Shown here: positions 23,592-25,274 of the stretch, one piece after another
How positions within the stretch are numbered: the first letter of the stretch is position 1
Layout of the letters: each line of letters opens with the position of its first letter
NCBI GenBank assembly: GCA_963827655.1
Contig: CAWHCF010000026.1
Location: 1 to 64,000, forward strand
Source of the DNA: an uncultured Acidobacteriota bacterium
GTDB lineage: Bacteria > Acidobacteriota > UBA6911
Direction: 5' to 3'
Length of the DNA: 64,000 nucleotides
Notes under the pieces: model-generated
The model's database searches: none
What the model was told of the DNA's origin: nothing
Seen by the model: the letters and a program-made list of their open reading frames with translations, nothing else
Made by a program: the position numbers and the translations under genes

Positions 23592-25274
23592 TTATCCGGC
23601 GGCCTTGGCCCTCGCCTCCACCGGTAATCCGGCTTCCTGCCAGGCGGCCCACCCGCCGGTGAGCGCGCGCGCCTTCTTCCACCCCGCCTGTCTGAGCTCT
23701 TGCGCCACACGGGCGCTCGTGGCCTCGTTCGTTCAAGCGCAGTAGGCGACGAGCCAGTCCTCCCGGTTGAGGCCGAGGTTACGCGCCTGATCCGCCACGT
23801 GGTCCGGTGGCATCCGGATCGCGCCTCGCGCCTGCAAGTCGCTTCCTTCAAGACTGCGCTCGGTGCGCACGTCCAGGATCGTGACCGGCTCTTTCGCCTG
23901 CCACAGACGGCGGAGCTCGTCGATTGAAATTCGTTGCCGGCCGATTTCCTCGACGTCGCCTGGTGGAACGGCGGCACGCGGCGCGATCTCACTATTGTCC
24001 GCCGCCGGACCCGAGAGCACGGGCTGGGTTACAAGCGGTTCGTCCGGGACCGCCGCGCCGCTCGTCTCTTTAAGCGCCCGCTTGCGGGCGGAGCGCGCCA
24101 GCAGGAGCGGGGAACCGCCATGCAGCACCACCGATACCAGCACTACCAGGGAGCAGATCATAAACAGCCGGCTGGCGCCCGGCAGCCCGGCAAAGACCGG
24201 GAGCAGGACCAGCAGCAACGAACTTAAGCCCCTCGGCCCGAACCACGCGATCAAGCGGCGGCTGCGCGCTTCCACGCCCGAACCCAACAACGAGGCGAGG
24301 TAAACCGGCGTGCGCACCAGGACCGCCAGCGCCGTGAACAACAGAGTCGCACCGGTGATCCCCGTCAAGCCGCTCCAGATTAGTGAGGTTCCCAGCAGCA
24401 CGAAGGTGAAGAGCAGCAGCATCTCGGCGGTCGCCTCGCCGTACTCGACAAAGCAGTCGCACAGTTCCACGTCGAGCGCCGCGATCGTCATCCCGGCGGC
24501 GAAAGCGGCGAGGAATCCGCTCCCATGAACCATTTCGGCGGCGGCGAATGCGGTAAAGCCGAGGCCCAGCGAGTAGAGCGATTCGTAGTCGCGGCGAACG
24601 CCGAGTTTCTTCCGTACCAGTTCAAGCGCCGCAACCCCGAGCAGCCCGACGAGAACCCCCGCGCCTGGCCCGAGGATGAACAGGTGTAGGCCGAGCTTTG
24701 CCCATCCGGCGCCGGTGAGCGGATCTTCCCGGTTGAGAAAGGCCATGGCGACGATCAGGATCGGGAGCAGCACGACGTCGTTGAGCCCGCTCTCGAGCTG
24801 CAGCGCCTGGCGCGCGCTCGCCGGGATGTCGGGCCGGCGCAACAGGCCTCGCAGCAGGACCGGGTCGGTGGAGGCGAGGGCTGCCCCGAGGATTGCCGCC
24901 GCCGCTACCGGCAGGTCCAGCAGCCACCACCCGGCCAGCGCAATAAGCGCAGCGCAGAGCAGCGACCCGGGTCCGAGCAACCGGAGCGCCAGCGTGCCGT
25001 GCCGCCTTACCTCGGCGATGTTGAGCCCGACGGCATCGGTAAAGAGGACGAGCGCCAGACTCAAGGTGGCGACGACTTGCAGAGGAGCGGAGTCGAGTGA
25101 GATGTTGAGCACTCCCAGCCCGGCGGGCCCGATCGCCGCTCCGAGCGCGAGAAAGACCGCGATCTGGGGCAGCCCGCTGCGTTCGACCAGCCCGGAAAGG
25201 AGGGCGGAGACTACGATGACGAAGCCGATGATGATGAGTGTGGCAACGAATGATTCTGGATTGAAGGAATTCAT
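23592..25274 (-). CDS. CPA1/NhaP cation:proton antiporter fused to a rhodanese domain, with probable selenocysteine (UGA 23733-23735)
   Basis: LASTDPV and LESGLND CPA1 motifs. Rhodanese ILDVR...GAIR. The frame continues YCA-UGA-TNEATSARVAQEL...ALTGGWAAWQEAGLPVE to TAA at 23592. Confidence 0.85.
23700..23732 (-). promoter_or_regulatory. Candidate bacterial SECIS hairpin
   Basis: GCCAC-GAGCGCCCGU-GUGGC begins 10 nt after the in-frame UGA. An alternative stem is GCGCC/GGCGC. Confidence 0.5.

Follow-up and report, generated by a model that had tools for sequence, protein, structure and literature searches.

The gene described here lies on the minus strand of a 64-kb window (the whole stretch of DNA that was analyzed) from the genome of an uncultured Acidobacteriota bacterium, which is assembled into 53 contigs totaling 8.18 Mb and is 90% complete. 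It encodes a cation/proton antiporter membrane domain followed by a rhodanese tail, and an in-frame TGA inside the tail is a candidate codon for selenocysteine (Sec, U). The open reading frame (ORF) as called, 23733..25274, comprises 513 residues and ends with ...NREDWLVAYCA followed by the TGA. Past the TGA, the same frame continues for 46 codons, TNEATSARVAQELRQAGWKKARALTGGWAAWQEAGLPVEARAKAAG, up to a TAA, and the TGA codon itself corresponds to residue 514. A preliminary description of the locus, made from the sequence alone, had noted that the ORF stops at YCA-TGA and that the frame runs on for 46 codons that complete the rhodanese; translation and a Pfam search of the read-through protein agree with it, the latter finding two domains, PF00999 (Na_H_Exchanger, residues 22-388) and PF00581 (Rhodanese, residues 452-548). 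The rhodanese match crosses the TGA, so that the ORF as called (513 residues) breaks off partway through a fold. Orthologues align with the read-through protein end to end across the TGA. The features of the locus are collected in Table 1.

Table 1. Features of the antiporter-rhodanese gene, its neighbors in the window, and a stand-alone relative elsewhere in the genome.
Feature	Coordinates	Strand	Details
Predicted complete selenoprotein coding sequence	23592..25274	(-)	560 codons + TAA; ATG 25274-25272, TAA 23594-23592; translated with TGA = U
CPA1/NhaP-type cation/proton antiporter membrane domain (predicted)	24111..25211	(-)	Residues 22-388; Pfam, PDB sequence matches, Foldseek
C272-D273-C274 (CDC) motif	24453..24461	(-)	Start of long helix 269-304
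Low-complexity linker	23943..24044	(-)	Residues 411-444; length varies among orthologues; consensus of orthologue alignment A2 undefined there
Rhodanese domain	23631..23921	(-)	Residues 452-548; enlarged loop C512-A-U514-T-N-E-A-T-S
C512 codon, Cys at the canonical rhodanese catalytic position	23739..23741	(-)	Kept in 76/76 orthologues; alignment to 6mxv
In-frame TGA, very probably read as selenocysteine U514	23733..23735	(-)	Column comparison among loci
SECIS-like hairpin	23702..23716	(-)	Stem GCGCC 23716-23712, loop CGUGU 23711-23707, stem GGCGC 23706-23702
PIN-domain protein	22745-23348	(+)	PF01850, 1.1e-14; small overlapping ORF before it
514-residue AAA ATPase	25700-27244	(-)	PF00004, 1.2e-17
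Stand-alone CxU rhodanese, selenoprotein candidate	G000:C17:32001-32321	(+)	Outside the window; TGA 32205-32207, 1 internal TGA; NF041203, 66.2 bits

Among 61 genomes searched (the window's own and 60 relatives), the only close orthologue was found in a genome of the same family and a different genus (G009; 59% identity over residues 1-555). It contains exactly one internal TGA, located in the identical column in the context VCAU-PNEATSARVA. A scan of species-representative genomes yielded 126 confirmed loci, 80 of which were kept for comparison. Judging by record titles, 70 of the 80 belong to Pyrinomonadaceae, Blastocatellia, or other Acidobacteriota, and the remaining ones are labeled as Gemmatimonadaceae/Gemmatimonadales (4), Armatimonadota/Fimbriimonas (2), Chloroflexota (1), Myxococcales (1), Binatia (1), and Xenobia (1). 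One of the 70 comes from a cultured isolate, Pyrinomonas methylaliphatogenes K22, whose orthologue (L065) carries TGA in the U514 column. When the rhodanese parts of the window gene, the G009 orthologue, and the 80 kept loci were aligned to the query, the U514 column held TGA in 78 of the 82 loci and TGT, a Cys codon, in one Xenobia locus (L106), which reads FCTCPSEETS. The column is not covered in the other three: L098 and L107 run into contig ends, and in L071 the frame is lost ahead of the rhodanese loop through a frameshift or an assembly error. One further locus, L078, matches until 18 nucleotides (nt) past the TGA and then diverges fully close to where its contig stops, a behavior expected of chimeric or misassembled sequence.

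Protein databases present the same column from the other side. Of the best 120 fused homologues listed (from 199 at E ≤ 1e-5), 118 cover just 55-61% of the 121-residue tail. These short entries have a PF00999 match only and are named "cation:proton antiporter" or "NhaP-type Na+/H+ or K+/H+ antiporter"; the sequences that were fetched terminate with ...AYCA. The two full-length entries among the 120 are P0002, a Cys form reading YCACPNEETS, and P0007, which has Gly at the column. The family is deposited systematically as a truncated "cation:proton antiporter" without a third of its rhodanese domain, and gene callers and selenoproteome surveys should recover it. A HMMER search of 1.84 billion cluster representatives (clusters at 50% identity) gave the same picture: 45 of the best 150 representatives returned have a rhodanese part, and 30 of these 45 stop exactly at the Sec column, ending in C-x, with the others reading C-x-C (11), Ser (1), or Thr (1) or being incomplete (2). 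The alternation of TGA with Cys holds across clusters down to ~40% identity, and neither a private nonsense mutation nor a read error can account for this. The preliminary description had suggested looking for homologues with TGA or Cys in this column and for conservation past it; the former are represented by the 78 TGA loci and by the Cys forms L106, P0002, and 11 cluster representatives, and the latter is seen at the protein level in the orthologues.

The codons downstream of the TGA were analyzed in 72 orthologues anchored on the TGA. From codon +11 to codon +40, amino acids are kept and synonymous positions vary freely; residues at +13 to +40 are 90-100% conserved. At codons +16, +21, +23, and +27, Ala or Gly is present in 97-100% of sequences, and four codons are used at each. 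For example, position +16 is 99% Ala, encoded by GCA, GCC, GCT, and GCG in 27, 20, 13, and 11 cases; position +23 is 100% Ala, with codon counts of 19, 20, 8, and 25; and Gly+27 is 100% conserved. Such a pattern is the signature of purifying selection on a frame that, to judge from these codons, is translated past the TGA.

Closer to the TGA, the synonymous positions behave differently. The codons for Ser+6 (AGC, 69/72), Ala+7 (GCC, 71/71), Val+9 (GTG, 71/71), and Ala+10 (GCG, 70/72) are frozen, and Arg+8 switches between CGT and CGG. This segment of the coding sequence contains a conserved hairpin, GCGCC-CGKGU-GGCGC, with its first base 16 nt past the UGA and Arg+8 in its loop. RNAalifold run on 74 distinct sequences predicted exactly the helix GCGCC/GGCGC, with 98.4% of cells paired, and one of the pairs changes from C-G to U-A in L063 and L072 and to U-G in L092. 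The complementarity is lost in L106, the sole Cys-form DNA at hand. A second CxU rhodanese gene of the host genome, on contig C17, has the hairpin GCGCC-CGUGC-GGUGC at identical spacing from its UGA. Four observations point to a constraint acting on the RNA, namely, the freezing of synonymous sites, the constant spacing, the loss in L106, and the match in the C17 gene. Models of the bacterial Sec insertion sequence (SECIS) describe a small apical stem-loop with a G in the loop, located roughly 16-37 nt from the UGA, and the geometry of the conserved hairpin fits them; the hairpin is a probable SECIS for this gene. It is unusually small, almost invariant, and common to the stand-alone paralogue, which makes it usable as a search pattern for the family.

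A GC hairpin pattern of this form occurs three times in the 64-kb window, compared to 0.5 expected; since the pattern is not rare by itself, its weight comes from conservation rather than presence. Single-sequence folding is uninformative at the UGA region (z-score of +1.43 after the UGA, with 191 of 200 shuffles folding as well). A lower stem, formed by alignment columns 15-19 with 46-50, was considered and rejected, as only 74.9% of cells pair and two of its pairs fail to form in roughly half the sequences. The GC hairpin that the preliminary description had placed ~10 nt past the UGA, GCCAC...GUGGC, does exist in the window but is not conserved in orthologues; the conserved one starts 16 nt after the UGA.

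The host genome encodes SelA (372.8 bits), SelB (380.1 bits, profile positions 1-579, in an open frame), and SelD (384.3 bits), all above the respective cut-offs, and has tRNA-SeC(tca) at C13:105683-105780, which means that all of selA, selB, selC, and selD, the genes proposed as worth looking for when the locus was first described, are present. Taken with the TGA/Cys column, the conservation downstream of it, and the hairpin, the presence of these genes upholds the original suggestion of a 560-residue Sec protein with UGA in place of the second Cys in a C-x-C rhodanese loop. We conclude from this comparative evidence that the UGA at 23735-23733 is very probably decoded as Sec.

The rhodanese tail (PF00581, 34.6 bits at a cut-off of 22.2, 2.8e-8) was modeled by AlphaFold2 (AF2) with a predicted local distance difference test score (pLDDT) of ~95; the score drops below 50 at linker residues 411-413 and 416-444. 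In the HMMER alignment to PDB entry 6mxv, C512 pairs with the Cys of YCGGGFRS in both 6mxv domains, and the query loop is two residues longer and lacks the usual Arg. On this alignment, U514 is an extra residue in the enlarged loop C-A-U-T-N-E-A-T-S. The loop is acidic or neutral (T-N-E) and has no Arg, which makes sulfur transfer of the thiosulfate type unlikely.

Among the NCBIfam rhodanese models, the tail scores highest with NF041203, "rhodanese_LYCAU, rhodanese-related (seleno)protein", at 98.1 bits over positions 20-126 of the 126 in the profile. Its cut-off of 115 bits was reached neither by the protein (98.1) nor in the genome scan (94.8). The Y-C-A-U/C loop motif, as read from the model's name, is present in the window protein as A-Y-C-A-U. 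By these profile scores, the tail is a relative of the known selenoprotein family NF041203 and not a member of it by the curated threshold. The two share the rhodanese fold, the Y-C-A-U loop, Sec two residues past a conserved Cys, and homologues with Cys in place of Sec; however, NF041203 models a 126-residue stand-alone protein, whereas here the domain forms the C-terminal tail of a 13-helix antiporter. All 66 close database matches of the tail cover ≤61% of the query; they are pieces of the fusion, and they too end at the TGA. Weak NCBIfam matches of the tail include the chromate-resistance rhodanese ChrE and the rhodanese domains of MoeB/MoeZ. Three stand-alone relatives are present in the host genome: one on C17 with Sec (YCSU, in the context ...VTYCSU-SAEQTSARA...), one on C49 with Cys (YCACPNEETS), and one on C47 with Gly (YCAG). 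That Sec-containing rhodanese families exist, as had been stated beforehand, is documented by NF041203 and by a table of a 2026 selenoproteome review (PMC13188914), where a CxU rhodanese is catalogued as "form 3, CxU".

The membrane part matches PF00999 with 136.4 bits at a cut-off of 26.2 (1.5e-39, profile positions 2-368 of 375). Its closest solved relatives by sequence are the PaNhaP structures 4cza and 4cz8. A Foldseek search with the AF2 model (mean pLDDT of 84.6, predicted TM score of 0.73) gave PaNhaP 4cz9_A at an E value of 2.4e-10 and a target TM score of 0.72, as well as MjNhaP1, SLC9C1, SOS1, and KefC, the best fold matches being PaNhaP and MjNhaP1. Orthologue alignment A2 shows at least 90% conservation, up to invariance, for the motifs F78-T79-D80, T136-D137-P138, N165-D166, and G346-P347-R348-G349. 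The ATDP and ND of PaNhaP, whose TD (in the unwound helix) and ND residues we take to be ion-binding, are matched by T136-D137 and N165-D166, and D80 and the GPRG motif align with their PaNhaP counterparts as well. Judged by these matches and by the predicted fold, the membrane part is a CPA1/NhaP antiporter. The archaeal CPA1 Na+/H+ exchangers PaNhaP and MjNhaP1 (4cz8, 4cz9, 4cza, and 4czb) have the fold and the TDP, ND, and GPRG motifs in common with it, but share only ~20-23% identity, end after the last helix, and are without the rhodanese tail, Sec, and CDC motif. Of the NCBIfam models, the K+/H+ antiporter equivalog NF003716 scores best (150.8 bits at a cut-off of 355), followed by NF003715 (138.3 at 309) and the a_cpa1 model TIGR00831 (52.7 at 279.6), both likewise below their cut-offs. 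With the K+/H+ equivalogs all scoring far below their cut-offs, the cation exchanged may be Na+ or K+.

The CDC motif in the membrane domain, which had been pointed out in the preliminary description, is indeed found there and is invariant in 76 of 76 read-through orthologues. It aligns to a Lys/Arg-rich loop of PaNhaP and may face the same side as the tail. A CxC is also present at this site in 13 of 44 NhaP representatives without a rhodanese part; such tail-less carriers include P0230, P0260, P0270, P0271, P0276, P0284, P0311, and P0330, with CSC, CGC, CPC, CEC, CRC, and CTC versions. Because of these carriers, the Cys pair at the start of the helix is, on present alignments, an older feature of this NhaP clade. 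One family-level paralogue without rhodanese, L023, has C-E-F at the site.

Taken as a whole, and with a shade less confidence than the decoding itself, the observations are best explained by a 560-residue Sec-containing antiporter-rhodanese with hairpin-directed decoding of the UGA. In this protein, a CPA1/NhaP antiporter exchanging Na+ or K+ for H+ would come first and be joined through a disordered linker to the rhodanese domain at the C terminus, with SelB and tRNA-Sec decoding the UGA as directed by the small GC hairpin 16 nt downstream. NhaP proteins have 13 helices and an N-out/C-in topology; together with an acidic N terminus and a segment rich in Arg and Lys behind the last helix, this places the rhodanese tail probably in the cytoplasm. 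With Cys and Sec two positions apart, a C-x-U selenenylsulfide or a perselenide/persulfide switch is plausible.

The Foldseek neighbors KefC, SOS1, and SLC9C1 have, according to their entry titles, C-terminal cytoplasmic domains, which are regulatory in these proteins. The rhodanese tail would take the place of such domains, i.e., of the KTN domain in KefC and of the cyclic nucleotide–binding domain in SLC9C1 and SOS1. Kef is gated by thiol chemistry, namely, by glutathione and its adducts. By analogy, the tail might use its selenol to sense oxidants, electrophiles, or sulfane sulfur rapidly and switch antiport on or off, a proposal that we make tentatively and to which we give somewhat less than an even chance. 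More speculative still is the full chain of events, in which the C512-x-U514 loop, reacting with these species much more quickly than a thiol does, would form a selenenylsulfide or perselenide, turn Na+(K+)/H+ exchange on or off, and so reset cytoplasmic pH or K+. KefC (a K+/H+ system; PDB 8by2 and 8bxg) and proteins of the NhaP2/CvrA type (NF003716) combine an exchanger with a C-terminal cytoplasmic domain, as proposed here. KefC differs in being a CPA2 protein with a KTN/RCK domain; no TrkA/RCK Pfam match was found in the window protein, and the analogy is functional only. If the proposal is true, the switch would be a counterpart of Kef gating that depends on selenium, is widely distributed in soil Acidobacteriota, and has escaped notice through misannotation; the protein would also be the first secondary-active ion exchanger regulated via Sec.

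Several observations speak against this interpretation, some at the level of decoding and others at that of switching. The case for Sec incorporation is a comparative one. The covariation in the hairpin is thin: only one of five pairs shows a double change, and it does so in 2 sequences out of 74. The hairpin of L069 contains an A-C mismatch, and L078 is wholly divergent after +18 nt. Minimum free energy folds of single sequences do not select the conserved hairpin, and region 23500-23850 has no match to an Rfam family (two chance hits to long noncoding RNAs had E values >2). As assembled, selA is split over three frames (G000:C23:243300-245100, minus strand; ~1100-2400 of locus L001), and its repair draws on contigs of close strains and not on the genome's own reads. 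The assignment of the tail to the cytoplasm draws on general NhaP topology and the positive-inside rule, and the CxU paralogue on C17 has an N terminus resembling a signal peptide. The AF2 model, with its disordered linker, tells nothing about docking of the tail. The CDC motif was rejected as evidence for a rhodanese-specific partner or relay, given the CxC in rhodanese-less NhaP proteins. Last, no S/Se or redox gene is found among the common neighbors in 78 loci, and none of these neighbors adjoins the window gene.

As for selA, contigs of four short-read soil or rhizosphere runs from four studies have one base fewer at each of four places in the gene. These contigs are long over selA and nearly identical to it; one example is a 1616-nt piece with 29 differences. 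Omitting the four bases yields a single 453-residue selA frame with N-terminal, central, and C-terminal SelA segments. The selA frameshifts are, therefore, most likely assembly indels, in line with the earlier remark that errors in this contig are indels and not nonsense substitutions. The assembly seems to be prone to single-base insertions, which may also lower the 90% completeness estimate.

The chemistry of the tail could also be of a different kind. In a true selenoprotein, the rhodanese could be catalytic, acting as an S/Se transferase or a reductase for a chalcogen or metalloid at the membrane beside ion exchange. C512 does occupy the catalytic position of the rhodanese fold, the weak matches to ChrE and MoeB/MoeZ are compatible with such a role, and, according to PMC13188914, most Sec-containing transporter-associated proteins are implicated in metal or metalloid resistance. 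A catalytic tail is nevertheless unlikely, since the loop lacks the Arg or positive charge of active sulfurtransferases, CX5R phosphatases, and arsenate reductases, the antiporter has retained the conserved residues it has in common with PaNhaP, which exchanges alkali cations, and no S, Se, As, or Cr genes are conserved nearby in the 78 loci.

A lower chance still is to be given to a true selenoprotein whose C-x-U loop, possibly aided by the CDC motif, serves as a binding site for a soft metal (Hg, Cu, Ag, Cd, or Zn), making the protein a metal sensor or transporter. Cys, Sec, Asn, and Glu in one loop and an invariant CxC in the transporter would suit such binding, and the other Sec transporters in the table of PMC13188914 are metal-related. 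Against this, no metal-resistance genes are found among the neighbors, CxC occurs in tail-less NhaP proteins as well, and the CPA1 ion site has the ordinary TD/ND composition.

That the UGA is read as some amino acid other than Sec, through a reassigned code (TGA as Trp or Gly) or near-cognate suppression, is very improbable. The Gly in P0007 could be cited in its favor. This 602-residue entry is labeled Candidatus Gracilibacteria, reads YCTG-TSEGTS, and carries a Gly-rich extension beyond the usual end. Gracilibacteria read UGA as Gly; the Gly and the extension may reflect the depositor's translation of a TGA-containing gene with table 25, chosen from the bin label. The column alternates with Cys, the hallmark of a Sec/Cys pair, and several of the orthologous genes, L031, L055, and L086 among them, themselves close on TGA, so that TGA serves as a stop codon there. 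Further arguments against another amino acid are the presence of the complete Sec machinery, the dedicated hairpin, and the curated selenoprotein family as the best match to the tail.

Finally, a private nonsense mutation, sequencing error, or pseudogene with a 513-residue truncated antiporter as the true product, to which the public gene calls that stop at the TGA (118 of the best 120 listed among 199 homologues) and the indel-prone assembly, as seen in selA, might seem to point, has a negligible chance. Loci from several phyla, found in many separately made assemblies, have TGA in this very column (78 of 82), and their number and diversity exclude assembly artefacts as its source. Purifying selection acts on the 43-51 codons past it, Cys homologues exist, the assembly errors seen are indels and not substitutions, and half a rhodanese domain would not fold.

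For the Sec-containing antiporter-rhodanese, no description of a fusion between a CPA1/NhaP antiporter and a CxU rhodanese was found in full-text searches of the literature, in accord with the initial statement that none was known; supplementary tables of recent selenoproteome surveys might list it. The words antiporter, exchanger, and NhaP are absent from the main text of PMC13188914. The Sec transporter proteins that appear there are MerT-like proteins, an E1-E2 ATPase, YeeE/YedE, the SO_0444 Cu/Zn efflux protein, and SaoP/SaoB. Like the window protein, they are membrane transport proteins with Sec beside Cys, but none of those named in that text is a CPA-type cation/proton antiporter. Hence, the CxU rhodanese selenoprotein and the presence of Sec in transporter-associated proteins are already known, and only the antiporter fusion appears to be undescribed. 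Through the fusion, the use of selenium by abundant soil bacteria would be tied to the homeostasis of ions and pH, and the CxU rhodanese, for which we found no stated function, would gain a defined context. A tail attached to a transporter with measurable activity would provide a direct assay for sensing or action of the CxU loop.

In the window, the gene is flanked by the AAA ATPase gene upstream and the PIN-domain gene downstream; the latter and the small overlapping ORF before it look, by sequence, like a VapBC-type pair. These two neighbors are not kept beside orthologues, and a scan for promoters and terminators found nothing above expectation; the gene context gives no functional lead. 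The most common neighbors in the 78 loci are Peptidase_S58 (26), an SSF symporter (24), an unnamed ORF (23), GntR (23), and ROK (22). The Peptidase_S58 (DmpA-like) gene is codirectional and located downstream, a median of 34 nt away, and the gene of the SSF-family symporter is located upstream on the opposite strand.

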